Below, piece by piece: positions 1 through 55,564 of a stretch of DNA of 64,000 nucleotides (position 1 is the first letter of the stretch; each line of letters begins with the position of its first letter). Location of the stretch: positions 7,688,001-7,752,000 of the forward strand of contig CM102285.1 of assembly GCA_046563655.1 (NCBI GenBank), in the 5' to 3' direction. This DNA comes from Yuukianura sp. NJ FZ-2021. Taxonomy: Eukaryota. A model generated the notes under the pieces. It did not search any database and was not told the DNA's origin. It was given only the letters and a program-made list of their open reading frames with translations. The translations under genes and the position numbers were made by a program.

Positions 1-180
1 AAAACAAATAAACAATGAAAATGAAACTTTGACAAAAATTTTGAAAACTAATTACTAGGAAATGGTGACAAGTGTCAAAAAATGAATTTAACTGAAAACT
101 ACGGTGCTGAAGGCACTTAATACGGGACTCTAGTCCCATCTAATCTATCACTAGACAAACTGAGCACACAAATCGTCGCT

Positions 181-831
181 TTAGGTTGTTTTGGCGTAAC
201 GAGGGTTACTTTTCTGGTTCGTTTTGAATTGGTTTCTGCGCGGGGCTTTGCAAGTCGACGCATAGTGACCGGGCTGACAGCAACGTAGGCAATGTAGCTC
301 CTTTTTAAGCGGAACTGGAGCGAATCTACGCGGAAACTGGCTCGTTTTGGATGGTTTCGCCGGAGGAGGAGGAGGAGGAGGTGGCAGATTTTGAATTGGC
401 GGTGGAGGAGGAGGCGGCGGAGGCAAATTCTGAGGAACCATTGGAGGTGGGGGAGGCGGCGGAGGAGCCGGTTGACACTGGACCGTGACTGTAATGTCCG
501 GGAGCCTTTCCTCTGGAGATTTAGGAGACGGAGACCTTGGTCGGCTCCAAAAATAAATGGAAGGCGGGAACTTCTCGCGCAGGACAGAATCGAGGTACAT
601 GAGTTTGGAAGTCGTGAGGCCTCTGCCAGTTTTATGCCAGGAGGTAGGAATGGCTTCAATAATCGCAGGATTCAAGTTACGCTTGGCATAATAAACGATT
701 TCAGAGTCTGTAGGCTTTCGCTGGAGAGCAGATTCTATTTTAGGGATCAAACGCTTCAGGAAATCAGTGACGATCTCTCCGTCCCACTGAGGAAAATCAA
801 GTTTAGGTCTGGCTGATCGCTGAGAAGACAT
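181..831 (-). CDS. ORF3 of the Gypsy element: Gag-like, proline-rich protein with a CCHC zinc knuckle (216 aa)
   Basis: ATG lies 30 nt after the pol stop. N-terminal LDFPQWDGEIVTDFLKRL resembles a capsid start. It has three poly-Pro tracts and a CX2CX4HX4C knuckle (CLRCCQPGHYASTC), with no signal peptide or TM segment. Confidence 0.75.
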   Translation of the reverse strand: MSSQRSARPKLDFPQWDGEIVTDFLKRLIPKIESALQRKPTDSEIVYYAKRNLNPAIIEAIPTSWHKTGRGLTTSKLMYLDSVLREKFPPSIYFWSRPRSPSPKSPEERLPDITVTVQCQPAPPPPPPPPMVPQNLPPPPPPPPPIQNLPPPPPPPPAKPSKTSQFPRRFAPVPLKKELHCLRCCQPGHYASTCKAPRRNQFKTNQKSNPRYAKTT

Positions 832-861
832 GCTAAACCAACAAAAGAACAGAACGAAAAA

Positions 862-3768
862 TTAAATGCCTGCTGTACGATTACGTAACTGGTAACTACT
901 TTGTACAGGTACTGGCTTGGTCTTAACGACTTTTGCATAGGTCATAGGCTCAGGTAATGGTTCTGAAGGGCGGGAAAAATATCTTTTCAAATTGACTATG
1001 TTATGTCTGCCTGCACTTTCCTCAGAACCAAACAACTTTAGGCCGTAAACTAATGGCGTAACCTTCTCCGAAATGACATAAGGGCCTTCCCACTTAAATG
1101 CAAACTTTTTCATGATTCCTTTAGCCTTGTCTGACTGTATGTGAGTGCGCAGAAGGACTAAATCACCAACCTCAAAGCTGTCTGACCTACGTTTTTGATT
1201 GTAGTACTTGGCCTGGGAAGCTTGCGACTTTTCTAAGTGTTCCCTGGCTAATCGATAGACTTTAGAGAGACGCTCTATCAGGGTCAATTGGTAGTCTGTC
1301 CACTCGGCAAATTCGTCGCTCTGAGAGTCGTCTAAGGCCAAATCAAAGGGAGTGGAAAGCTCACGACCGAAATTTAACATAGAGGGGCCAAAACCTGTCG
1401 AATCGCTGATCGCAGTACGCAAAGCCATGGCAACTTCTGGGAGATTCTCATCCCATTTGGAATGTTTACGTGCTACGTAGGCTCTAAGAATGGCAATGAC
1501 GTTCCGATTGACACGCTCGGTAATGTTCGCCTGAGGATGATAGGTCGAAATGAATTTTAGCTTAACCTGCCAAGTTTTGCAAAGTTTCTTAAACAACTCA
1601 GAAGTAAATTGAGAACCATTGTCACTAAGTAACGCTCTAGGCCTACCGAAACGACAAAATACTTCCTGCTCGAGCTTTTGAATAATCTGAGGAGTCGTAG
1701 CCTCTCTGAGGGGAAAAATCTCAACCCATTTCGTAAAATGATCTGTCACGACTAGCAAAAACGTATTTTGACGTTGAGTTTTCGTAAGGGGGCCTATCAA
1801 ATCAAGGGCTAACATATCCCATGGACCTCTAGTCTGGACACTTTGGAGCTCACCTACTGGTTTCGTAGTGGGATTTTTAGTCTTTTGACAAATGTCGCAG
1901 GACGTAACGAATTTGTAAATGTCCTCGTGCATACCAAACCAGAAGACTCGACGTAGTAATCGGTAAAGGGTCTTTCGGAAGCCCATGTGACCTGACTCGG
2001 GACGATCATGAAAATAACTTAGAACTTGGGAACGTAAAGAGGAAGGAATGAAAGGAAGTTTCACTGCGTACTTTCCTAATCGATAAAGGATTCCGTCGTG
2101 CACTACGAAATCTTTACCCATGTCAGTTAGAAGCGCTTGGACCTCTAAATCTTTACTTTGTTCCTGTTTGAGCTGATCTAAAGAAATTTGCCTTGTGAGT
2201 GCAAGAAAAATGGCGGGAGAAGAACTATTTAGTGGAAAATGTAAATTTTCGCGATGAACTTCTGCATCCTCACTTTCTCCTACTGGGGCTCTAGACAAGG
2301 CGTCTGCTACAACGTTAAGTTTCCCTGGACAATGAGTAATAATGGGCTGAAAATCCTGAATTCTAAGGGCCCAACGGGTAAACTTACTATTGACATCTTT
2401 CATCTTGTCTAACCAAACTAGGGCCTTATTGTCTGTCTCGAGGCGAAATCTCTGACCGTCAATGTAATGTTCGAATTTCTTAAGGGCAAACAAAATACCT
2501 ACACACTCGATTTCACTGGAACCGTAGTTCTTTTCTGCGTTATTTAGGGAACGACTGGCAAAAGCTATTGGTCTCTCAAAACCATTGATTTCCTGGGCAA
2601 GGACTGCAGAAACACCAACCTTGGACGCGTCCGTCCGGATGATGAACTCTTTTGAAAAATCGGGAAAAGCCAAAACTAAATTATCGGAACAAATCGCTGC
2701 TCTGAGCTTTAAAAATGCGGACTCCTGCGCATCTGACCAATCAAAGGGAACATCCTTATGTAACAATCTGTTAAGGGGCTCACTAACCTCCGAAAACTTG
2801 TCGACAAACTGCCGATACCAGGAGCAAAGTCCTAAAAACTGACGAACTTGTTTAGGCGTCGTTGGCCTGGGGAACTCAGAAACTGCCGAAACTTTCTCCG
2901 GATCTCGCTCAATTCCGTTAGGAGAAATGATGTAACCTAAGTACTTTAATGTAGTTTTGCCAAACTCACATTTATCCTTATTTACAGTAAGACCTGCAGA
3001 TTGTAAACGTTCGAAAACGTACTTTAAGTGCTCTAAGTGCTCTGTCCAAGAGTTTGAGTATACAATGATATCGTCAATGTATCCATCAGCAAAGCGACCT
3101 CTCGCTGTGCCCAGAACTTTATTCACAAGCCTTTGGAAAAGAGAAGGGGCTGACTTTAAACCAAAGGGCATTCGAGTAAACTGAAATTTCCCTTCATGAC
3201 AAATAAAAGCAGTATATTTGGCACTATTTTCATCTAAAGCTACTTGCCAATAGCCTTTCTTTAAATCAATGACAGAAAGAAACTTAGCTTGTCCTAAGTT
3301 ATGGAAAAGATAATCTAACCTAGGAATGGGGAATGGATCGTGAGGAAGCCGCGCGTTAACTTTTCTCAAGTCCAGGGTAAATCTCCAAGATTCACCTTTG
3401 TCTTTGGTGTGCATATATACAGGGGAAGCCCATTCAGATTCGGAGGGAACAATGACTCCTAACTTTAGCATTTCAGAAATGTTGTCAGCAATCAATTGTC
3501 TTTTAAAGGGACTAACGGGATAGGGCTTGGAAGCAATTGGGGGTCCAGGAGACGGTGTCAACTCACACTTAACCCAATCAGTCAGGCCTAACTGAGAAGA
3601 GAAAAGTGAAGGAAAACTATCGGTAAGGGTCTTTAATTCCTGAGACTGTACGTCACTGAGGCCAAGAAGTGCGCGCAAGTACTCGCGATTGTGAAAATCG
3701 TATTCCAATCTACCTTTAGTTTTTGTCCCGTTAATGGAAAAAGTACCGTCATGAAAGTCTGGAACCAA
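862..3768 (-). CDS. pol: Pol: reverse transcriptase, RNase H and integrase
   Basis: RT motifs WASPV, IDLKKGYWQ, RMPFGL, YIDD. RNase H motifs TDAS, PIAFASR, ETDNKAL, ADALSR. Integrase zinc finger H..GH..CDIC, DDE core (LDLIGP, SDNGSQF, ITERVN) and GPY/F motif KWEGPY. Confidence 0.97.
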   Translation of the reverse strand: MVPDFHDGTFSINGTKTKGRLEYDFHNREYLRALLGLSDVQSQELKTLTDSFPSLFSSQLGLTDWVKCELTPSPGPPIASKPYPVSPFKRQLIADNISEMLKLGVIVPSESEWASPVYMHTKDKGESWRFTLDLRKVNARLPHDPFPIPRLDYLFHNLGQAKFLSVIDLKKGYWQVALDENSAKYTAFICHEGKFQFTRMPFGLKSAPSLFQRLVNKVLGTARGRFADGYIDDIIVYSNSWTEHLEHLKYVFERLQSAGLTVNKDKCEFGKTTLKYLGYIISPNGIERDPEKVSAVSEFPRPTTPKQVRQFLGLCSWYRQFVDKFSEVSEPLNRLLHKDVPFDWSDAQESAFLKLRAAICSDNLVLAFPDFSKEFIIRTDASKVGVSAVLAQEINGFERPIAFASRSLNNAEKNYGSSEIECVGILFALKKFEHYIDGQRFRLETDNKALVWLDKMKDVNSKFTRWALRIQDFQPIITHCPGKLNVVADALSRAPVGESEDAEVHRENLHFPLNSSSPAIFLALTRQISLDQLKQEQSKDLEVQALLTDMGKDFVVHDGILYRLGKYAVKLPFIPSSLRSQVLSYFHDRPESGHMGFRKTLYRLLRRVFWFGMHEDIYKFVTSCDICQKTKNPTTKPVGELQSVQTRGPWDMLALDLIGPLTKTQRQNTFLLVVTDHFTKWVEIFPLREATTPQIIQKLEQEVFCRFGRPRALLSDNGSQFTSELFKKLCKTWQVKLKFISTYHPQANITERVNRNVIAILRAYVARKHSKWDENLPEVAMALRTAISDSTGFGPSMLNFGRELSTPFDLALDDSQSDEFAEWTDYQLTLIERLSKVYRLAREHLEKSQASQAKYYNQKRRSDSFEVGDLVLLRTHIQSDKAKGIMKKFAFKWEGPYVISEKVTPLVYGLKLFGSEESAGRHNIVNLKRYFSRPSEPLPEPMTYAKVVKTKPVPVQSSYQLRNRTAGI

Positions 3769-4110
3769 ATGATAGTTCCTGATGAAGTCAAGTCCGAGAA
3801 TTAATGGGAAAGGAGGAGACTGGAGTACGTGTACTCTTTAAATATACTCGTCGCTGTAAATTTTGAATTTTAAATCAGCTGAACCTAAAGTACTGATCGT
3901 ACTAGAGTCACCAATCGTTAATGTTACTTTACAATCCTTAGTAACAACCAATCCCAGCTTATTTGCTAAGGAAAGGGAAATGTGGGAGTAAGTGGAGAGA
4001 GAATCTAGGTGGGCCGAATGCACCGAATTCCGAATTCGTACCATTATGGTGGGAGCTGCTTTAGAAAAGTTTAATTGTGGAAGGATAGGGGGCTCCCGTC
4101 CTACCTTCCT
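3769..4110 (-). pseudogene. Retroviral-type aspartic protease region, in frame with pol but interrupted by an in-frame TAA at 3838-3840
   Basis: Active-site-like AHLDSLSTYSHI (DSL instead of D[ST]G). Reading past the stop gives RVHVLQSPPFPLILGLDFIRNYH, the typical protease C-terminal motif, which runs directly into the pol ORF. Confidence 0.8.
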
Positions 4111-4739
4111 TGGGGGTTTGGATCCCTGGGAACTTGATGGGGAAGGGTGTAAACTACGACTTCTATTCCCCTCATGCATAATTCAGACCAAATAATGTGG
4201 GAAATAATGTTCCATCGTCCTCTGGAAAGACCTACTCCAATTCTGGGCATGTGAACAACTGAATTTGTGTCTAAGGCTCGTTTGGCTACAGTTTGTAAAG
4301 CTACACGAAGAGCATCGTAGTCAATTGGGACTGGCTCGTTGGGATGTCCTTGGGCTATCATGTTGGCAACCTCTATGTCTTTGGCTACTTGGACAAACTG
4401 TACATGACCTCTCTGAATTGGGGCTCGTAATTTTCTGTACTCCATTTCTGGAGCACGAAATGCCTTGGAAAGCGAAGTGACAAAACCTTTTCCCCAAAAA
4501 CCCTGATCGTTACAAATGTGTGCCAAGATACAACGTTGATTCTTTAAAATGGGCTGAGTTGCATCGCCAGTAACATGATGAATTTGACCTTTCTGGGGAG
4601 GATTAGGAGTACTGGAAGTTAAAGGAACGAAAACTGGAGAATCAAACAATGACGGAAGAGCGACCTTCTCCTGCGAGTCACTCCTCCTTAAACTTTTGGG
4701 TAACCGCCCTGATTTGTTTTCCCTCGCTTTTTGGGACAT
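4101..4739 (-). CDS. Macrodomain of the TARG1(OARD1)/DarG/SCO6735 (Poa1p/ALC1-like) class, predicted ADP-ribosylhydrolase; core about 4143-4583
   Basis: Class motifs present in order: IHHVTGDAT, ILAHICNDQGFWGKGFV, VQFVQV, VANMIAQ, IDYDAL, VHMPRIGVGLSRGRW, GIEVVVY. Confidence 0.9.
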   Translation of the reverse strand: MSQKARENKSGRLPKSLRRSDSQEKVALPSLFDSPVFVPLTSSTPNPPQKGQIHHVTGDATQPILKNQRCILAHICNDQGFWGKGFVTSLSKAFRAPEMEYRKLRAPIQRGHVQFVQVAKDIEVANMIAQGHPNEPVPIDYDALRVALQTVAKRALDTNSVVHMPRIGVGLSRGRWNIISHIIWSELCMRGIEVVVYTLPHQVPRDPNPQGR

Positions 4740-5929
4740 TGTGGAGCGTAGTGACCCTTCTGGTTACAGTAGAAGCACGTGACCTGATCGATTGACCATT
4801 CTCTAGAGGGTGGAGGTTGACCTGAACTACCCTGTCTACTCTCATTTCCTGGTGGTGGACGACCTTTACCATAATTGTTAGGCTGAACTGAACCTGACGC
4901 AGCTGGAGGACGCTGTGCATTGGAACTAGAAGATCCTGAATCGTTAGAGGCCCTAGGCTGATACCTTGCAGACGTTCTCTCTTTAAGTCTTTGGTTGTAC
5001 TCAGAAAAATCATCGGAAGTTTTCGCTCGAAGGAGGGGCTTATTCTCAAATCGCCTAGTCCTATTCAAGTCTCCTATAATCTCTTTACCATGTGAAATGA
5101 GCTCTGCTATCCCAGTAGCTTGCGAAGATCTAAGCAAAAGAGAGATTTCTGGGATACACGAATTGATGATTCTGTCCCTAATCGTTTCTGTGGAAACCTG
5201 AGGATCGATTCTCCTGTAGGAATTTGAAATATCCCATGCAAAAGTTTCAAAAGATTCAGCAAAAAATTGTTTTCGAGAAAATAATTCAGCAAGAAGTTTG
5301 TCTTTGGATTGTCCAACTCCTTCATAATTTTGAAAAACCACTTTAAAATCTTCCCAGGGTGTGATACTGTCCTTCGTATCCAACCACCATCGAAAAGTGT
5401 CAGAATCTTTATGGAACATTCGACTAATTAGGACCAATTTTCCTTCTTCAGTTAGATTTTTAAGTGCAAAATAATCTTCAGCGTCTTTAAAAAAAGCTTG
5501 AATTGGCATACGCTGCGAATATTTAGGAATAGGAATCACCGCTGCTTGTTCCACTAATAAAACTTGGGGCGCGTTAGGTGGTGTGATAGCTAGTGCGGGT
5601 GCGGTACTGGGTTGGGGTGCGGCAACCACTGGCGCGGGCGTTAATTGTTGTGCTTGCATGGCAGCTAATTGTGCTTGTAAAGTTTGTAATTGTTGACGTA
5701 GGTCAGCAATTACAACGTCTTTAGAATCCGGGGGGTCCATAATTGCGAGTGAATCTGAATATTCCTCCTCTGAATCTGATTTGTTTTCGGGAATGACTGG
5801 GGAAATCGAAATGATAGACGGGGGTGCGCTTCTCGCCCGCTCCGGTTCAGCAGGGACAAGTAGTCCTGTGTGGGAAGCCTCTGCTTGAGACTTTTGTAAT
5901 TCCCGACTCGCGCTGCGGGTAATTACCAT
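4688..5929 (-). CDS. gag: Gag (coiled coil, Arc/retrotransposon-type capsid, CCHC knuckle)
   Basis: First ATG at 5929 (MVITRS). Capsid motifs FRWWLDTKDSITPWEDFKVVF and RKQFFAESFETF. Knuckle CFYCNQKGHYAPQC. Confidence 0.92.
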   Translation of the reverse strand: MVITRSASRELQKSQAEASHTGLLVPAEPERARSAPPSIISISPVIPENKSDSEEEYSDSLAIMDPPDSKDVVIADLRQQLQTLQAQLAAMQAQQLTPAPVVAAPQPSTAPALAITPPNAPQVLLVEQAAVIPIPKYSQRMPIQAFFKDAEDYFALKNLTEEGKLVLISRMFHKDSDTFRWWLDTKDSITPWEDFKVVFQNYEGVGQSKDKLLAELFSRKQFFAESFETFAWDISNSYRRIDPQVSTETIRDRIINSCIPEISLLLRSSQATGIAELISHGKEIIGDLNRTRRFENKPLLRAKTSDDFSEYNQRLKERTSARYQPRASNDSGSSSSNAQRPPAASGSVQPNNYGKGRPPPGNESRQGSSGQPPPSREWSIDQVTCFYCNQKGHYAPQCPKKRGKTNQGGYPKV

Positions 5930-6309
5930 GAATAACACGAAAAACAACAAAAACTGAAATTTAGAAATGAATTTTAAATGATTTGTTTAGATTTACGCGG
6001 CATAATTTGTAAAAAGTTTCGAATTTAGACTTTAGAAAGAATTTGCAATGTGAAAATCCGAATTGTTAATTCGGGGTGCGGGACCGCGCTCGACTTGAAA
6101 ATGTTAAGCAGAGCGGTGCACTCCGCACTGCTGTGCAAAACCGTACCGTATCGCCGTTATGCTTATATAGCATGCAGAGCCATGCTTTCAACCGAATGAA
6201 CACCGAAATGTACCGAATTCGTCGGTATTATGTCATGAATCGGTGATTAATCCATGATTAATCATCGATTAACGTTATGGGAGAGCTAAAGGGGGCGGTT
6301 CAACGCTAC

Positions 6310-6320
6310 TTTCGGCACCA
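6310..6320 (-). promoter_or_regulatory. Primer-binding site complementary to the 3' end of tRNA-Phe
   Basis: TGGTGCCGAAA lies 4 nt inside the LTR end; eukaryotic tRNA-Phe ends ...UUUCGGCACCA. Confidence 0.8.
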
Positions 6321-6324
6321 GATA

Positions 6325-6933
6325 TGAGGGCTACGGGTAAGGATGCCTTGGACCTTGCCCGTGCTCTCAAATAAACAAAAGAAAAACCGAAAACCGAAAC
6401 GACGATATGTGGGCTACGAATTTATTCGTAGCTCATGACCTTAACACTACAATGGCCCACTAGGGCAAAAACAATGGGCCTGAAGGGCCTATAACCGAAC
6501 CAATGGAGGAAGGGAGGGAAGGAAGCGGGTAACAGGTTAATACCTGGCCTATGACCACTAACTGGTCAGTGACCACTAACTGGTCATGACCACTAACTGG
6601 TCAGGGCCACTAACTGGCCTCAAGAGGACGTAGAGCGTCCATTTGACCTTACGGTGACCCTTGGGCTGGCAGAAGGAGATGACGAGGACAGGCACGGCGT
6701 GGCAGGAGGATCTGCTGCTGCTGCTGACTGCATGAGAGCTGGAATCCGAGTGAGTGCTCGTGCAGCTCGTGCTTCTGCTTCTGCTCTTCTTCTTTTTTGA
6801 ATTCGGGGAAGCGGGAAGCGGGGAAACACTTATGGGCATTGCCCTAACTTATATTTTTAACTCTTTTTAACTATTTTGTTTTTAACTTAGCTTATATTTT
6901 TAATTAGTTGTTTAATTGAGGATCATATCCTCA
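6325..6933 (-). repeat. 5' LTR (609 bp) of the macrodomain Gypsy element
   Basis: Termini TGAGG...CCTCA form a perfect 5-bp inverted repeat. The PBS is adjacent, AATAAA is at 6421-6426 (minus), and there is an abrupt switch to a G-rich host repeat at 6934. Confidence 0.8.
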
Positions 6934-7345
6934 CACCAGGGAGAGTGGGGGTGAGTTCCCCCACTTCTCAGCCCATCCCTCCGGCGAAGAGGGGGTGTGT
7001 TCCCCCACTTTTTTCCTCCGCACCCCAGGAGCGTTGGGGTGGGTTCCCCCACTTTTTCGCTCCGCACCCCAGATGGAGGGTTCCCCTACTTTCCCACGCT
7101 CATTCCCCGGAGAAGCGTGAGTGTGTTCCCCGGGGGAAAGGTGGTGAGTTCCCAGGAGGGAGAGAGGGTGGGTTCCCCGGGGAAGAGAGGGTGGGCTCCC
7201 CGGGGGAAGAGGGTGTGGGTTCCCCGGAAGAGAGGGGGTGTGTTCCCCGGGAAAGAGAGAGTGGGTTCTCCGGGGGAAAGGCGTGGGTTCCCCCGGCGTG
7301 TGGGGAAGGTTTCTCCGGGGGTGTGAGGGTGGGTCACCCGGGGCC
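6934..7345. repeat. G-rich minisatellite (GGGTTCCCC/GGGGAAGAGAG units)
   Basis: About 23-nt G/C-run units; same family as 7785-8192 and, inverted, 15955-16262. Confidence 0.85.
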
Positions 7346-7389
7346 ATGGTGCGGTCCTCAACGCTTCCCAGCTATCAGGACGTTAATAT

Positions 7390-7658
7390 GAAAAAAAAAG
7401 TTGACCTTTGACCCGGAGGCAGGTTACTTGGGGTCATTTGATATAAACAAAAGTTGTTGGTCTCCACGAGATGAACAACTTTTGTAGAGGTCGTTTTCCG
7501 GGTTACCGGGGGATGAAACTGGTTGACCTTGACCTTTGACATGGAAGCAGTTGCCCCACGGGGGTCATATTCAATAGTGCACAGGTCCGGGTCATGACAT
7601 GGTGACTGGTGAAAACCCGGTTGGAATCGGTCCAGTAGTTTCTGAGATCCATGCGCTG

Positions 7659-7690
<32 letters not shown>

Positions 7691-7695
7691 TGAAT
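7390..7695. mobile_element. Fragment of a Helitron/DINE-like interspersed repeat
   Basis: TGACCTTTGACC motifs, AATCGGTCCAGTAGTTTCTGAG and a (CAGA)n tail; homologous to 8250-8570 and other copies in the window. Confidence 0.6.
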
Positions 7696-7784
7696 CAGAT
7701 CGGTTGTAAACCGCGCATAACGAAATAGCTCAAGACAAAAGACAGTTGGTCACTTACGCTTTTCTCCGTAATCCTCAGCTTCTC

Positions 7785-8192
7785 CCCCCATGTGGAAGTG
7801 GGGGATGTGTGTTCCCCCCGCCTTTTTGCTCCGCACCCCAGGAGGCGTAGGGTGGATTCCCCCCACTTTTCCGCCCCACCCCCGGGGGAGTGGGGGTGGG
7901 TTCCCCCCACTTTTCGGCCGCCCCCGGGGAGTGGGGGTGGGTTCCCCCCATTTTTCCGCCCCCCCCCCCGGGGAGAGTGGGGGTGGGTTTCCCCCACTTT
8001 TCCGCCCCCCCCCCCCGGGGAGAGTGGGGGTGGGTTCCCCACACTTTTCCGCCCCCCCCCGCAAGGGAGTGGGGGTGGGTCCCCCCTTTTCCGCCCCCCC
8101 CCCCCGGGGGGAGTGGGGGTGGGTTCCCCCCACGTTTCCGCCCCCCCCCCCCCGGGTTGAGTAGAGTGGGTTCCCCCCCACTTCCCCCACCT
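7785..8192. repeat. G/C-rich minisatellite (about 40-45 bp unit, GGGAGTGGGGGTGGGTTCCCCCCACTTTTCCGCCCC)
   Basis: About 8 tandem degenerate units. Confidence 0.9.
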
Positions 8193-8249
8193 GGGATGCC
8201 TGCATTATGAGAGAATGGGCAAGGTAGCAGGCTTGCCTTGCCCATCTAC

Positions 8250-8535
8250 ACTGTATGTTAATACGTTGACCTATAATCGCGGTTTTGACCCCCTTGGAGG
8301 GGTCAGAGACCCATGGTTCATATACCAAAGTTGTTCCCCTCAATGAGAGGAACAACTTTTGTTAGGGTCATTTTCCCGGTTTTATATTCAAAAGGTCAAT
8401 GACCTTGACCTTTGACCCGGTAAAAGGTCACCTATCCGGATGATATGATAAAATTGAACTGGTATACACCATGACATATCAATCGATGAAAACCCGGATG
8501 AAATTGGTCCAGTAGTTTCTGAGTTATTGAGGCTC

Positions 8536-8566
<31 letters not shown>

Positions 8567-8570
8567 TGAA
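8250..8570. mobile_element. Second fragment of the same Helitron/DINE-like repeat
   Basis: GGTCCAGTAGTTTCTGAG plus (CAGA)n and TGACCTTGACC motifs. Confidence 0.6.
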
Positions 8571-8720
8571 GCGACTTTCGTAGTAATTCGTTTCGGTGTA
8601 GTTCGATTTCGAAGTAAAGTACTTTCGTAGTAAATCGACTTTCGTAGTAATTCGTTTCGACGAAATTCATTCGTCGAAATGCGCTTCGTAGTAAATGATT
8701 CGGCGAAATGGCATGGAACC
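8571..8720. repeat. About 20-bp periodic array (TTTCGTAGTAA core)
   Basis: Repeated TTCGTAGTAA/TTCGAAGTAA at roughly 20-nt spacing, ending in GGAACC. Confidence 0.7.
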
Positions 8721-9369
8721 ACTGCGATTGGACATCTTCTGTTCACCGTCATTGTGGTTGAAGTTTTGTTTTATTACTTCCATAGAGCCCTTCACTACCC
8801 GCTAATTTACAAATGAATTCACAAAAAGCATCACACTTGGGTATCACCCGTTGCAATCGCCGCCATCTACTGTCATCCTATAGAACAAGTCCTGTCCAAC
8901 ATCATTCCAGTCGTGGCGGGTGAATTTGAAATCAAATTAGTCGTCGCTTTTTCTGAAAACCTTCTTCATTTTTTCAAAATTGTTTAGGTTTCAAAATTCA
9001 ATTTTTTTGCTGTATTTTTTGCTTTAGGTCCTTTTATCCTAGGCACGCACGTTGTTATTCTTTGGGCCTGGATTGCAGTTTCCATTGTAACGACGCTTAT
9101 CACCCACAGTGGCTACCATCTTCCGTTTCTCGTTTCAGCTGAATTGTTTGTATGACTTCCATCACCTAAAGTATACATTGATTTTGATACCTTCTTTGTA
9201 AAGTTTAAAATTGATTTCGTTTGACACTAGGTTTAACTACAACTTTGGTGTGATTGGCCTTTTGGATAGACTTCATGGCACGAATGTTTTGTTCAAAAAA
9301 TCTAAAGAATCTGTTCGTCATCGAACGCTTTGGACACTCCAGTCAGCCAAAGAACTGTACCCTAACTGA
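8721..9369 (+). pseudogene. FAXDC2: FAXDC2-like fatty-acid hydroxylase/sterol desaturase pseudogene (5'-truncated, three exons: 8721-8919, 9028-9170, 9231-9369)
   Basis: Translates to EVLFYYFHRALH, IHKKHH, YCHPIE, THSGYHLPF, DFHHLK|FNYNFG..LDRLHGT. In-frame TGA at 8814-8816 and a frameshift near 9145-9155. GT-AG introns. Not in the ORF track. Confidence 0.85.
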
Positions 9370-11309
9370 ACTTGCGCTTTTAACTTCACAAATTACTTTT
9401 AAAATCGTAACTTTAAGGTAGTTTTTATTAACTAACTAAACTAATGCAACCAAAAACGTAATTTGCAATTCCGATTGTTCAAACACTATTTTCTGAAGGC
9501 TGAAAACATCTTCAAGATTAAACCCATCGCACGTAAAAAATACTGGGTTCTGGGTCAAAGTATGGGGGACTTCCGTCGGACGCCTCGTTTTTAATTTTTA
9601 TTAACATTATTGCTGGTTATTAGAAGCCATGCTTGCGAAGTACCCTTCAGCGGACAAAGTCCAAAAATCCCAAAATTTTAGCGCGAAATTTCTTTCAGAA
9701 ACTTTGGAAAAAACTGATGACGTTCCAGCTAGCGGCAAAAGTGCCCTAACGACCAAAACCGATTTTTGAAAAGTAAACAACGAAAAAAAAAGTCACCAAG
9801 AATGGCGTGGACGCACTGCTTATAAAATTTCCAGATTTTGAAAAAAAAATAGTTAAGCTATTCGTACATTCCCGGGTTCGGATTCGCCTGAAGGAGCTCA
9901 GCATCAGTGCTAAGAGCAAATATAATTTTAAAAAAGCTAACCACTTTATAAGAGCAGCACCAAAACAACAATAGCCTAATAAGATTACCAATTTTTGGTA
10001 TGAAATAAAATTATTTTCAAAGATTTGGTCTAAGAATTTTAAAATAAGAAGCCTATCTGATGAATGGTATGCAGCATGGTATGTATGTAGGTATGTAGCA
10101 TGATAACGTACATACGCACAGAACTTTTTTTAATATTTATTTAGTTTTTTGAACTCAAAGCATACGTCAATTCAGGCCAAATAAATTTCAAAAACAGTTT
10201 CGTATTTCAAAAATTTTGAAATTTTGTAATTTAAAAAAAATTCATGCCAGATCCGAGACTGGCGTCTGCTCTAAGCTTTTATGGAAAAAGGAAGAAGTTG
10301 TGGCTGAAGAGCACTCGACACCGACAGTTCAACTTTCGGCAAACGAATTCCCAGAGACGCTGAAAGAGGAGACCGCGTGAGTCCGCATGTTAATGTTAAC
10401 TTATGTTAACTGTGGAGTGGCTGACTTCTCACCTTTCATTAACCGTTGAACTTTCAGTTATGAGAATGCCACGTCATTATGCCATGGGCGTAGAGAAAGT
10501 GGAGAAGATGACTCGGATCTTATTTAGTTAGAGTTGGCACGGCGAGTGGTGAAAGACTTGTGGGGTCTTCGACCGAGCTACTATTTCATAAATCGTGAGG
10601 AAATTGCAATTTTGCAAGACCAAGAGGAGCAGATGAAGGAAGCAGCATAAAAATCGTCTTCGAATTTAAATTTTGCGCCAATTTAGTGTGCTAATTTATT
10701 CCAAAAATTTTGGCTTTGTCGAAAAAAGTTTGTGACAAAATAGGCGTAAAAGCTTTGCTTTTGTTTGGATTTATGTTGAACAATTTGGATTCAGAATAAA
10801 GCTATAGCTATTTTTTAAAAATTTAGGAAGTTTGAAAATGAAACTCAAATTAAGTTGTGCATGACATGGGTTTTGAAATTTTGGAACTTAAAGCAATAAA
10901 TTGTGAAAAGTCAAGACATTTTGGAAGAATACTTTTTATAGTTCATTTTTTTACTGTGCAGTTGTGTGCAATTCCAAAAAATTTCCTTTTCTGCTGAACT
11001 GTTAGGTTTCGGCATTTTGGAAATAAGTTACTCCGAAAACGGATTCGTATTTTGGAAGTTAGACGAACTTTGCGACGTTCAATCAACCTATCACGTTTTC
11101 AGGGGTGACGCTGCGCTGGAGGAATTAATATCAACAACTCGAAGTAAAAAGCTGAACTCTAAATTAGAATAATTTAGAGTTCAGCTTTTTACTAATTTAG
11201 AGTTCATCATGCATGTAACGCCTTAATTTGTTAACAGCTCCCCCACCGAGCCCATTCAAACCTTTGGTCTTCTATGCCGGGCTCAAACTGAACCGATGGC
11301 AAATGTATG

Positions 11310-51568: not shown

Positions 51569-54500
51569 TTAAATTTTGTAAGTTCCTGGGGGTGGACGTT
51601 CCCGCTTTGGATATCGTGGTGGGACTGGGGTCAGCGGTGGTTCTGGTTGAGGAACCGGTTTCTCTGCTGTGTCCATCGGCTCTGCCACGACTTCCTCTTT
51701 CCCTTCTTGTTCATCCTCCTCCATGATGTCCTGTGTTGGTCCATGCAGCAACTGATCAGCATGACGCTTGATTTCTTGTCCATTGACATCAACGATGAAC
51801 GTCACTGGTCCAATTTGTCTCCGGATGATTCCAGTTGACCATTTGGGTTCATTTTTAGAAAATGTTTTGACCCAAATGCGTTGTCCAATATGAAACTCTC
51901 GTTCTCGAGTCTTCTTGTCATAATTGGATGATTGTTTGAATTGTGAATATCCAACTTTTGCTCGAACATCTGGTCGCAGAAGATCCAGGAGTGTTCTCAA
52001 TTTCCTTCCTTGCAAAAGTTCGGCTGGAGACTGTCCAGTGGTAGCATGAGGTGTTACTCTGTAGGTGAACAGAAAACGTTGGAGTGCAAGGCTGCGATCT
52101 CCTTCAGCAGCTTTCATTGACTTTTTGAAAGTTTGAATGAACCGCTCTGCTTCGCCATTTGACCTTGGGTGATAAACGGAGCTTGTTGTGTGACGAATAC
52201 CATTCGAGTCACAAAATGATTTGAATTCCTGGGATGTAAACTGTCTTCCGTTGTCAGAAACAATTTGATCCACCAATCCGAATCTGCATATTGATTCTCG
52301 GATTTTTGAAATGACAGCAAAACTGGTTGCGTTGTTATTCAAATCAAAGACTTCCGGCCATTTTGAATGTGCATCTGTGATGATGAGCCACATCTTGTTT
52401 AAGAATGGTCCAGCCAGGTCAATATGGATACGTTGCCAAGGGCGTTCTGGAAACTCCCATGGATGTAGAGGTGCACTAGGTGGGTTTCCTCTGTTCTGCA
52501 CACATTTTGTGCAACTTTTACACATCGATTCGATTTCTTCGTCAATCCCTGGCCACCAGACGTACTGTCGTGCCAGTGATTTCATTCTCACAATTCCAGA
52601 GTGAGAGTCATGCAGTTCCATTAAAATTTTCTTCTGGAGAGCGGCTGGAATTACTACTCGAATTCCCCACAGGATGATATCCTGAACCAATGTCAATTCT
52701 TCTCGTCGGAGAAAGAATGGGTACAAAGGGTCCGTCTTTTGCATTTTAACCGGCCATCCACTAGAGACATGGCGATAGACTGTAGAAAGTAGTCCGTCTC
52801 TGGAAGTGACATTTTTAATTGCTCTGGCTGTGACTGGAAGAACTTCTAAAGTCGAACAGGCCACGAGGTTAACTTCGGATTCTAGTTCCGGTTCAACTTC
52901 CGGTATGCCATCTGTCGGTGTCGGATGTCGGGAGAGTGCGTCTGCATTTCCATGATCTGCGGTCCGTCTGTACTGCATGGAGAAAGTGAATTGGCTAAGG
53001 AAGAGACTCCACTTTTGTAATCTTGTCGCAGTGAAAGATGGAACTTGTGCTTTAGCTCCAAAAAGTGAAAGTAGTGGCTGATGATCAGTGACCACTGTAA
53101 ATTCTCTTCCGCAAAGAAACTGGAAAAATTTCTTTACTCCAAAGACGATCGCAAGTGCTTCCTTCTCGATCTGGGAATAACGCTGCTCTGCTGGTGAAAG
53201 TACTTTAGATGCAAAAGCTATTGGTCGCTCTGAATTGTCCAGGAACCGATGAAATAACACTGCTCCGAGTCCCTTCTGAGATGCATCACAACTGATTCCA
53301 ATGGGAAGTTCTGGAGAGTGATGACAGAGGATCGGGGCAGAAGAAAGTGACTTTTTAATCCCGTCAAAGGCGATTTGACACTTGTTTGTCCATTTGAAAT
53401 CGACATCTTTTCTCGTGAGAGCGTACAGCTCAGCACATTTGTCTGCGAGGTTTGGTATGAACTTTCCATAAAAGTTGACTAATCCTAAGAAGGATTTAAC
53501 CTCGGTCACCGTCTGTGGGCGTTGAATGGCATGAACTGCTTTCACCTTGCCTGGTGATGTGGTGAGTCCATCCTTTGAAATCACAAATCCAATGTACTCA
53601 AGTGACTTTTGTAGAAAAAGGCATTTGGATTTTGATAGACGGTAATTTGTTTCGCGCATGCGCTGGAAAATTTTCTGCAAAGTGGCTAGGTGCTCTGCGT
53701 CCGTGATGCCAGTGCAGATGGAGTCGTCCATGAATGATCCAGCCATCGGAATGCCCTTCAGAAGCTTGTCCATAAACTCCTGAAAAATTGCTGGAGAGGA
53801 GGCGATGCCCTGGGGCAGAACTTTGTAACGGTAAAGTCCTCGGTGCGTGTTGATCACCATAAATGATTTGCTCGACTCGTCCAGTTCAATCTGATGGAAG
53901 GCGTCGGGGCCATCCAGTCTTGAAAACGAAAATCCTCCAGAGACCGTTGACATCAGCTCGTCCACCCTCTGCAAGGGATACTGGGTTATGTTCAACTGTG
54001 AATTGACAGTGTGTTTGAAGTCACCAGTGATTCGGACTCTGCCATTTGCCTTGGGCACTACGACCAGGGGTGAGGCCCATTCTGAGTGTTCAATCCTTTG
54101 AATAACTCCAGACTGTTCCATTTGATCCAACTCGGCATCGACTTTGGAACGAAGTGCAAATGGTATGGGGCGTGCCTTCAGAAACTTTGGAACGGCATCG
54201 TCCTTGAGGATTACTTTGGCCTTGAACCCTGTAATTGATCCACGAGGTGGTGAGAATACGTCCTTGTATTCGTCCAAGAGTTCGTCTAAGGTCAACTTCT
54301 GCGATGACGCAGGAATTCTGTGACACTGCGCAGGCGCGGCGAGCGTCAAGTTCAATCCGAACAGGCGGATTAAATCTCTTCCAAACAGAGATTGGCTTCC
54401 TTTTGTAACTGAAAAGGAGTAGTTCACTGACTGTCCATTGTAACCAAGGGTTACGTCCAATTTCCCCAGGGGGCGAAATCGTTGGTTAGTGAAAGTTCGA

Positions 54501-55564
54501 AAAACGGCATTTGTTTTTGTGAGAGGCGGCGCTCCTAGTTTCTTTCTCCAAAAGTCTTCACTGAGGAGGCTATTCTTACACCCGCTGTCGAATTCCATTG
54601 AATGAGAAATCCCGTTAATTAGCACATCGATTGTGTATTCAGCCAGATTGTCAGCACCTTGATAAATAGAATTGACGTTTGAAAGCGATGAGTCATCCTC
54701 GACTGCGATCGTGTGGGCGTTTTTTCTGCTACTGCGGCAGTATTTCCGGAAATGTCCCTTTTTTGAACAAGCAAAGCAAACAGCATCTTTGTGCGGACAT
54801 TCCTTCGCAGTTTTGTGCTGCGTAGAACCACAATTTGGACAGAACGATCCTGATTGGCTGCGCCCGAATTGGCCCTTCCCTTGACTCCTCCCATGGCTCC
54901 TCCCACCTTTTGAGTTAGATGCGAATTTGGATGCTGGTCCAGAATTGCGATTGAACTGTGAAGGAGAGCGGCGATGAGGACGTGAAGCGGAGGCGTAATT
55001 TACCCCACCGTGGGTATTTGCGTCGCGGATTGTAGAAGTGCCTAGCTCGGCAGCGTCTTGAGAAACAGCGATTTTTAGAGCGTCCTCTAATGAAAGCGTG
55101 TCTTCTCGTGTAAAAATCCGTCGTTGGGCGGTTTCGTTGGCTAGTCCAAAAATAAACTGATCACGAAGTTTCTCAGAGAGTGTTGCGTCAAATTTGCAAG
55201 TGATTGCTAATTTCCTCAGCTCAGCCAGGAAGGTTGCGGATGTTTCTCCAGGCTTCTGTTTTCTAGCGGAGAATTTAAATCGTTCAGCGAGAGCCTTCGG
55301 TGGCGGTTTGAAGTGAGCTTTAAGTACCGTAACCAATTCTTCCAACTTCTTGTCCGAATACTGGGCTGGAGAAATTAAATTGTTCAGTAGGCTTACTGTT
55401 TCAATTCCAATTGATGATATGAAAATGCCCATGCATCTTTTCTGGTCATTTGCGGAATTGTAGTCAAGTCCATTTGCTAGAAGAAATGACTTGAAAACGT
55501 TTATCCAGTCATCAAAATCGTTTTTCTCTGGTTCAAATTTCTCGACCGTCCCAATTGTCGTCAT
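51569..55564 (-). CDS. Gag-Pol polyprotein (two CCHC-type knuckles, PR, RT, RNase H, integrase), 1331 aa
   Basis: Gag ERFKFSARKQKPGE and LRDQFIFGL; knuckles CPNC..H..C and CFAC..H..C; PR FDSGC; RT WASPLV and FMDD; RNase H CDAS..IEKEALA..TDHQPL..ADALSR; integrase H..H..C..C, HIDLAGP, SDNG, GEAER. Confidence 0.97.
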   Translation of the reverse strand: MTTIGTVEKFEPEKNDFDDWINVFKSFLLANGLDYNSANDQKRCMGIFISSIGIETVSLLNNLISPAQYSDKKLEELVTVLKAHFKPPPKALAERFKFSARKQKPGETSATFLAELRKLAITCKFDATLSEKLRDQFIFGLANETAQRRIFTREDTLSLEDALKIAVSQDAAELGTSTIRDANTHGGVNYASASRPHRRSPSQFNRNSGPASKFASNSKGGRSHGRSQGKGQFGRSQSGSFCPNCGSTQHKTAKECPHKDAVCFACSKKGHFRKYCRSSRKNAHTIAVEDDSSLSNVNSIYQGADNLAEYTIDVLINGISHSMEFDSGCKNSLLSEDFWRKKLGAPPLTKTNAVFRTFTNQRFRPLGKLDVTLGYNGQSVNYSFSVTKGSQSLFGRDLIRLFGLNLTLAAPAQCHRIPASSQKLTLDELLDEYKDVFSPPRGSITGFKAKVILKDDAVPKFLKARPIPFALRSKVDAELDQMEQSGVIQRIEHSEWASPLVVVPKANGRVRITGDFKHTVNSQLNITQYPLQRVDELMSTVSGGFSFSRLDGPDAFHQIELDESSKSFMVINTHRGLYRYKVLPQGIASSPAIFQEFMDKLLKGIPMAGSFMDDSICTGITDAEHLATLQKIFQRMRETNYRLSKSKCLFLQKSLEYIGFVISKDGLTTSPGKVKAVHAIQRPQTVTEVKSFLGLVNFYGKFIPNLADKCAELYALTRKDVDFKWTNKCQIAFDGIKKSLSSAPILCHHSPELPIGISCDASQKGLGAVLFHRFLDNSERPIAFASKVLSPAEQRYSQIEKEALAIVFGVKKFFQFLCGREFTVVTDHQPLLSLFGAKAQVPSFTATRLQKWSLFLSQFTFSMQYRRTADHGNADALSRHPTPTDGIPEVEPELESEVNLVACSTLEVLPVTARAIKNVTSRDGLLSTVYRHVSSGWPVKMQKTDPLYPFFLRREELTLVQDIILWGIRVVIPAALQKKILMELHDSHSGIVRMKSLARQYVWWPGIDEEIESMCKSCTKCVQNRGNPPSAPLHPWEFPERPWQRIHIDLAGPFLNKMWLIITDAHSKWPEVFDLNNNATSFAVISKIRESICRFGLVDQIVSDNGRQFTSQEFKSFCDSNGIRHTTSSVYHPRSNGEAERFIQTFKKSMKAAEGDRSLALQRFLFTYRVTPHATTGQSPAELLQGRKLRTLLDLLRPDVRAKVGYSQFKQSSNYDKKTREREFHIGQRIWVKTFSKNEPKWSTGIIRRQIGPVTFIVDVNGQEIKRHADQLLHGPTQDIMEEDEQEGKEEVVAEPMDTAEKPVPQPEPPLTPVPPRYPKRERPPPGTYKI

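Follow-up and report, generated by a model that had tools for sequence, protein, structure and literature searches.

The 64,000-nt stretch of Yuukianura sp. NJ FZ-2021 DNA analysed here (the window; contig CM102285.1, positions 7,688,001 to 7,752,000) contains a repeated Ty3/Gypsy retrotransposon that carries a small intact open reading frame, ORF3, in the slot behind pol where an env gene might stand. ORF3 combines a CCHC knuckle with three polyproline tracts and has no features of an envelope protein, and we put the chances at about even that it is a genuine lineage-specific accessory gene, most likely encoding a nucleocapsid-like RNA-binding adaptor or chaperone. Below we describe the element and the frame, the evidence that the frame is coding, the comparisons with Gag and with database proteins, and the other readings of ORF3 that these data allow.

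The host element is a Ty3/Gypsy retrotransposon with a macrodomain

One minus-strand Ty3/Gypsy-class LTR retrotransposon fills the left 7 kb of the window, and all of its features given here lie on that strand. The inferred 5' LTR (6325-6935), read from the sequence, extends from a TG at 6935 to a CA at 6325; its boundaries are provisional because the 3' LTR lies outside the window. Past 6935, the window and the contigs of another organism no longer agree. Four nucleotides after the end of this LTR stands a primer-binding-site-like sequence, TGGTGCCGAAA (6310-6320, likewise read from the sequence), which we take to be complementary to the 3' end of tRNA-Phe. No tRNA gene was found in the window, and a search of positions 1-7000 against Rfam returned no family.

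The gag gene (4688-5929, ATG at 5929) encodes a CCHC knuckle near the C-terminus of its product (Pfam zf-CCHC, E 5.5e-5), and this product is weakly homologous to the Gag parts of the Gag-Pol proteins P0084, P0089 and P0063. Overlapping the end of gag in another frame is a macrodomain ORF (4101-4739, with the domain at about 4146-4607). Pfam gave no match for this ORF at E ≤ 0.1; in PDB sequence searches its residues 45-198 matched 5e3b_A, 2afc_A and 2fg1_A, which are of bacterial type (E 2e-30 to 6e-30); a weaker match, at E 3e-7, was to the CHD1L macrodomain. These PDB matches establish as real the macrodomain between gag and protease, which the initial annotation had counted, together with ORF3, as an accessory gene of the element.

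A change of frame is required between the macrodomain ORF and the protease ORF (3838-4179), which was recognised from its translation and from alignment with relatives. The protease ORF is cut off within its domain by an in-frame stop (3840-3838), in place of which the closest relative keeps a sense codon. At the position of the catalytic motif, the window and its closest relative P0004 have D-S-L and 10 other relatives have D-T/G-G-A-S/M; judging from these residues, the protease of this sublineage may be atypical or inactive. Downstream lies pol (862-3768), in which Pfam recognised a reverse transcriptase (RVT_1, E 6.9e-36), an RNase H (RT_RNaseH, 2.9e-33) and an integrase (Integrase_H2C2, 9.9e-20; rve, 3.5e-14), followed by an SH3-like tail and a TAA stop at 864-862. 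The order of reverse transcriptase, RNase H and integrase behind a protease ORF is the Ty3/Gypsy pattern, and the best relatives of pol are Gypsy-type proteins with 49-64% identity.

Outside the 5' LTR, positions 6940-8360 of the window hold G/C-rich tandem arrays composed of 23-nt and ~44-nt units and (GACA)n runs, and these arrays are duplicated about 877 nt apart. The window contained no further copy of the ORF3-bearing element, its only other retroelement of this kind being an unrelated one at 51569-55564 (minus strand). That element has a single 1331-aa gag-pol ORF with two knuckles, protease, reverse transcriptase, RNase H and integrase, shows 28% identity to the pol of the first element, and has no 3' ORF of at least 100 aa.

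ORF3 is an intact frame with a knuckle and three polyproline tracts

ORF3 starts with an ATG and comprises 216 codons plus a stop on the minus strand (831-181, stop at 183-181). Its ATG follows the TAA of pol after exactly 30 nt (spacer 861-832), so that the intact 216-aa ORF reported 30 nt behind pol was borne out in its coordinates. The N-terminal domain (residues 1-95; 547-831), within which FPQWDGEIVTDFL forms residues 13-25, is predicted to be helical in low-confidence models and has no detectable relatives. It is followed by a Ser/Pro-rich linker with three S-P sites (residues 96-120; 472-546) and by three polyproline tracts (361-465) of 8, 9 and 8 prolines at residues 123-130, 137-145 and 150-157, among which the string QNLP8 is duplicated (residues 134 and 147). 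Residues 181-194 (250-291) read CLRCCQPGHYASTC, a CX2CX4HX4C zinc knuckle that was identified by pattern match and resembles the knuckle of the element's own Gag, and the protein closes with a basic C-terminal tail (184-249). The calculated pI is 10.1 for the whole protein and 10.5 for its C-terminal 56 aa. The three polyproline runs, the duplicated QNLP8, the CCHC knuckle and the basic tail described in the initial annotation are therefore all present.

The same annotation had seen no env features in ORF3, and we agree: neither a signal peptide nor a transmembrane segment was found (maximum Kyte-Doolittle 19-residue mean 0.39), and Pfam and PDB sequence searches returned no env homology, ORF3 belonging to no Pfam family and having no PDB sequence relative. 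As for the proposal in the initial annotation that the polyproline tracts could recruit profilin, EVH1, WW or SH3 proteins, the motifs PPxY, PTAP and FPPPP are absent from ORF3.

ORF3 lies inside the repeated unit, which also occurs without it

We searched positions 1-861 for LTR-like sequence and found none matching the 5' LTR region. Since the spacer is also too short to hold an LTR, the 3' LTR must lie to the left of the window, and an LTR between pol and ORF3, considered as a possible objection to ORF3 being internal, is not there. We then compared positions 1-7000 with the contigs of four public DNA runs, three of them made from a single organism A sample and the fourth from organism B. 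All 30 bins of this region, those of ORF3 included, were covered at repeat-level depth in each of the four runs. ORF3 bins had roughly 0.3-0.7 times the depth of pol bins; we draw no conclusion from these ratios, since the parts of an element cannot be ranked by contig depth. The 3' untranslated tail (1-180), which ends before the 3' LTR is reached, is repeated like the rest of the element, with high depth in all four runs; at its positions 94 and 103 the window has G where all contigs of all four runs have T, and these bases are private to the window copy.

Single contigs were found to bridge the end of pol and ORF3. One of them (record 1) covers 617-900 with 4 differences from the window, no gaps and a depth of 820, another (record 17) covers 429-987 with 13 differences and no gaps, and the identity of ORF3-bearing contigs to the window is 97.7-98.6%. 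These contigs indicate that ORF3 lies inside the repeated unit and is contiguous with pol, and in the lack of an intervening LTR the placement of ORF3 in the env slot of a repeated Ty3/Gypsy element is confirmed.

Other contigs have a different structure at this place. A junction of 892 to 143 was seen in one contig each of runs X1 (depth 587) and X3 (depth 81.7), both from the same organism A sample; it leaves out the last ten codons of pol, the spacer, ORF3 and 37 nt beyond, a stretch whose boundaries do not resemble those of an intron. These contigs indicate that part of the family is without ORF3 or has something else in its place. Similar joints in organism A (4109 to 4826 and 4121 to 5124) omit the macrodomain region, and the family seems to exist both with and without each of the two accessory segments. 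Loose contig ends in which GATC stands beside GATC were also considered as structural variants and were rejected, as they look like proximity-ligation junctions. Conservation of ORF3 within the family, on which the initial annotation had staked its reading, thus held in part: the ORF is covered by contigs from both organisms, yet some from organism A pass over it, and no homologue was found among the proteins of related elements.

The ORF3 frame looks like coding sequence

ORFs of this length are not expected by chance behind pol. When the 861 nt downstream of pol were dinucleotide-shuffled 2000 times, no shuffle contained an ATG-initiated ORF of at least 216 codons (the longest had 214), and the count was again 0 of 2000 when the polyproline block was kept fixed in place. 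With a model trained on the gag and pol of the element, codons 1-118 of ORF3 gave a frame-specific codon score of +21.8 nats, which none of 1378 background windows (9000-50000) reached, and the two off-frames of the same codons scored -30 and -29. For comparison, the macrodomain ORF, which was outside the training set, scored 25-30 and the protease ORF 14; the 58 C-terminal codons of ORF3 are uninformative for this score. Comparison of the first 11 codons of the two QNLP8 copies showed 6 nucleotide differences, all of them synonymous, those in the Gln and Leu codons included, where by our estimate about 28% of the possible single changes in the repeat would be so. The proline codons of the tracts are mixed (CCT 14, CCG 7, CCA 6 and CCC 1), which sets the tracts apart from a simple triplet microsatellite. 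Taken together, the shuffles, the codon score, the synonymous repeat differences and the mixed proline codons argue that the ORF3 frame is, or recently was, translated and constrained.

These results bear on the strongest competing explanation, namely that ORF3 is a non-functional relic of recombination or partial capture, carried along by a recently amplified subfamily in which the open frame reflects youth and not selection. The high identity of the ORF3-bearing contigs to the window indeed marks these copies as young, contigs without the ORF3 segment exist, and the database search found no homologue of ORF3. The protease of the window copy is already broken, so that an intact ORF3 in this single copy is by itself weak evidence of function. 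Against this, the codon-usage score of ORF3 matches that of the element's genes and the two repeat units differ only synonymously; moreover, if ORF3 was derived from Gag, it would have diverged beyond recognition while staying open, a course that neutral decay should not allow. We regard a relic as unlikely, while ranking it ahead of the other alternatives.

ORF3 resembles Gag at its knuckle end

The knuckle end of ORF3 is similar to the C-terminus of the element's own Gag (BLASTP E 3e-5; Smith-Waterman score 63 against 25 ± 4.8 for shuffles, with none of 1000 reaching it), a similarity whose weight is limited by the generic nature of CCHC knuckles. The sole Pfam knuckle match of ORF3 was zf-CCHC_2 at E 0.38, and PF00098 (zf-CCHC) was not reported even at E ≤ 10, so the knuckle is identified by its pattern and by the comparison with the element's own Gag, not by a profile. 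ORF3 has no DNA similarity to the 3' end of gag. By its amino acid sequence, then, the C-terminus of ORF3 is nucleocapsid-like.

For the N-terminus, which had been called capsid-like, the evidence is weaker. Pfam was empty for it, and in a pairwise comparison with the capsid region of the element's own Gag it stayed at chance level, its score being reached by 766 of 1000 shuffles. Against a profile of seven Gag sequences, residues 1-112 scored 17.2, a value equalled or exceeded by 4 of 200 shuffles. When the window's Gag was left out of the profile, hhalign placed the N-terminal part of ORF3 on the same profile region with P 0.059; here 2 of 18 control windows taken from pol and the macrodomain ORF scored as high, and the segment of the element's own Gag used as positive control scored 43. 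At full length, residues 5-215 of ORF3 aligned colinearly with positions 98-300 of the trimmed Gag alignment (hhalign E 3.4e-4, probability 38%), and this score was carried by the knuckle end.

Model-based comparisons gave a similar picture. The nearest language-model neighbours of residues 1-112 were Caulimovir_coat_dom (0.92), Retrotrans_gag (0.90 and 0.89) and DUF1759 (0.85), and capsid families were also nearest for the whole of ORF3; these scores, 0.84-0.92 overall, count as leads by the tool's own rating. AlphaFold without an alignment reached a pLDDT of 46 for the whole of ORF3 and of 50 when given residues 1-112. It predicted four or five helices, which in these low-confidence models span residues 18-36, 42-52, 55-59 and 74-87. 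A Foldseek search of the PDB with the pLDDT-50 model returned nothing at E ≤ 0.001, capsid entries appearing only among the noise at E of about 3; the structural check for a capsid domain proposed in the initial annotation thus gave no match with this low-confidence model. A capsid-like N-terminus is possible, to go by the profile and language-model comparisons. Of the mini-Gag that had been suggested, the nucleocapsid-type knuckle with its similarity to the element's own Gag stands, and the capsid N-terminus is a possibility.

Two readings would nevertheless derive ORF3 from Gag. By the first, which we see as a long shot, ORF3 would be a self-encoded 'half-Gag', that is, an ancient and strongly diverged duplicate of the capsid-end and nucleocapsid part of gag that became a separate 3' gene. 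Such a protein might bind the element's RNA through its knuckle and couple it through formin-like polyproline to host actin, profilin or trafficking, or it might poison Gag assembly as a form of copy-number control. If this were true, the half-Gag and the macrodomain together would give a Gypsy element a retrovirus-like accessory set without an envelope. By the second, still less probable in our judgement, ORF3 would be a truncated Gag-derived regulator, in effect like Ty1 p22, though with a 3' gene of its own. The colinear alignment, which covers the last 200 residues of the Gag profile, and the capsid families among the neighbours of residues 1-112 speak for such a regulator; however, the colinear score comes from the knuckle end, the N-terminal part alone did not stand clear of its controls and shuffles (P ~0.06), the comparison with the element's own capsid region was at chance, and at the DNA level ORF3 does not resemble the gag 3' end.

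No ORF3-like protein was found among relatives of pol

The integrase part of pol matched 618 proteins at E ≤ 1e-20, the best of them, from a metagenome, being 64% identical, and the closest named relatives of pol, with identities of about 50%, belong to the springtails Orchesella and Folsomia. Among 16 aligned relatives, 12 end at most about 16 residues after a shared Y.LR.R motif and 4 stop earlier. Since the relatives end at the same pol motif, the stop that precedes ORF3 looks ancestral in this alignment. No ORF3-like protein surfaced among the proteins of the closest pol relatives (49-64% identity). An exhaustive phmmer search found no relative of the ORF3 N-domain among 1.84 billion representative proteins, a database size at which an ORF3 with about 30% identity over 100 residues in related elements would escape phmmer. 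With ORF3 as query, phmmer yielded three matches at E ≤ 0.001, all of them to polyproline or generic knuckle repeats. Word-index protein searches gave no match for ORF3 among 1070 candidates and none for gag among 7999, and viral contigs yielded nothing to any of three queries (ORF3, the C-terminus of pol, and the pol alignment).

A metagenome locus (L001) retrieved with ORF3 residues 1-120 was judged a chance hit, as the match spans 30 residues, is surrounded by stops and has no retroelement genes near it. A scan of prokaryote genomes with the pol alignment found four contaminant loci with distant Gypsy pols (33-43% identity). On the contaminant contig L003, which is filed under a bacterial MAG, a distant Gypsy element with 33% pol identity has an unrelated 512-aa ORF3 after pol (8344-9882, plus strand) and a second gag 2 kb further on.

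The database searches also weigh on the idea that the element captured ORF3 as a piece of some host gene, such as one for a proline-rich or formin-FH1-like protein with a CCHC knuckle. The best database match, P0001 (E 3e-7), covers the proline-rich part only and looks FH1-type, and uptake of foreign ORFs by LTR elements is documented (PMC5408684). The match to P0001 is of low complexity, however, neither the N-domain nor the entire ORF3 protein turned up a host-like homologue, and the codon usage of ORF3 fits the element, and we consider host capture quite improbable.

A spliced message would account for ORF3 expression

The spacer between pol and ORF3 (832-861) is pyrimidine-rich, with 22 pyrimidines among the 28 nt of 861-834, is open in the pol frame, and ends in an AG one base before the ORF3 ATG. 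This tract and AG look like a 3' splice site. The only consensus-like donor found in the leader is at the gag ATG; with splicing from there, a short upstream ORF in another frame would run across the start of ORF3. The ORF3s of LTR retrotransposons are described as diverse, family-specific and usually expressed from spliced messages (PMC5408684). Because other ORF3s are expressed in this way, we propose by analogy that ORF3 would most likely be translated from a spliced subgenomic mRNA whose acceptor is the pyrimidine tract with its AG.

Protease, pol and ORF3 share one frame, and a single TAA and 10 sense codons divide pol from ORF3. Least probable of all, to our mind, is that ORF3 forms a C-terminal extension of integrase made by reading through this TAA, as a tethering or targeting module like the chromodomains of chromoviruses: the shared frame and open intervening codons would permit it, but one in three ORFs would match the pol frame by chance, no stop codon is less leaky than TAA, RNA folding downstream of the stop is not stronger than in shuffles (z +1.1, with 174 of 200 folding as well), 12 of the 16 relatives end a few residues after Y.LR.R, and the spacer would encode a hydrophobic FFVLFFCWFS linker.

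If ORF3 is, as we prefer to think, a lineage-specific accessory gene, one subfamily of the high-copy Ty3/Gypsy element would carry it in the env position. Its product would be a small, basic and soluble protein composed of an orphan helical N-domain of about 95 residues, a Ser/Pro linker, three polyproline tracts of 8-9 residues, a CCHC knuckle and a basic tail. By comparison with Gag knuckles, the knuckle and basic tail may hold the element's RNA, while the N-domain and the proline tracts may contact proteins of the element or of the host.

Comparison with known systems

LTR retrotransposons are usually described as gag-pol elements in which env is the only extra gene. The nearest known kind to the gene described here is the family-specific, non-env ORF3s of LTR retrotransposons, and no Gypsy ORF3 with both a knuckle and polyproline tracts was found in the literature searched. 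In bdelloid rotifers, the Vesta, Juno and TelKA elements have ORF3s of GDSL, DEDDy, coiled-coil and TM types (PMC5408684). These genes are like ORF3 in lying between pol and the 3' LTR, in being specific to sublineages and absent from related elements, and in not being envelope genes. They differ from it in that the described types include none with a CCHC knuckle and polyproline, in that no sequence similarity was found, and in belonging to hosts of a different phylum.

A second parallel is CERV, the product of an ORF in the env slot of the C. elegans Gypsy element Cer1, which is expressed from a spliced mRNA and required for the export of genomic RNA (PMC10309623). CERV is like ORF3 in being non-env, in having no homologues outside a narrow host group, and in having a Cys-rich, putatively zinc-binding region and proline-directed Ser sites. 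CERV acts on the RNA of its element, and an RNA role is what we propose for ORF3. In contrast to ORF3, with 216 aa and an ATG of its own, CERV has 517 aa and a five-exon mRNA that shares gag exons, and the two show no sequence similarity.

The nucleocapsid part of retroelement Gag proteins shares with ORF3 the CX2CX4HX4C knuckle with its GH, the basic flanks and the preceding proline-rich linker. ORF3 is unlike it in being a separate gene 3' of pol, the element's own gag being at 5929-4688, and in that a capsid domain is not demonstrable. The polyproline tracts bring to mind formin FH1-type regions, in which multiple such tracts stand beside an FH2 domain and bind profilin. ORF3 is like these regions in its several runs of 8-9 prolines with short spacers and unlike them in having neither an FH2 nor another actin-related domain in Pfam. 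A functional analogy, and no more than that, can be drawn with Ty1 p22/p18, a truncated Gag that restricts its own element (PMC4599808, PMC4551931): p22 is identical to Gag in sequence, comes from an internal gag transcript and belongs to a Ty1/Copia element, whereas ORF3 is separate and highly diverged. If ORF3 nevertheless derives from Gag, it would show that elements have arrived at a self-encoded truncated-Gag factor by a second route, independent of that of Ty1 p22.

The rotifer elements and Cer1 show that the env slot can hold different genes controlling RNA handling, and a knuckle-bearing polyproline ORF3 in an arthropod Gypsy family that also has a macrodomain would be a further kind of accessory gene. 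Forms with and without ORF3 seem to occur side by side in the same genomes, both in many copies, which offers a natural comparison of the effect of the gene for, or on, the element that carries it.
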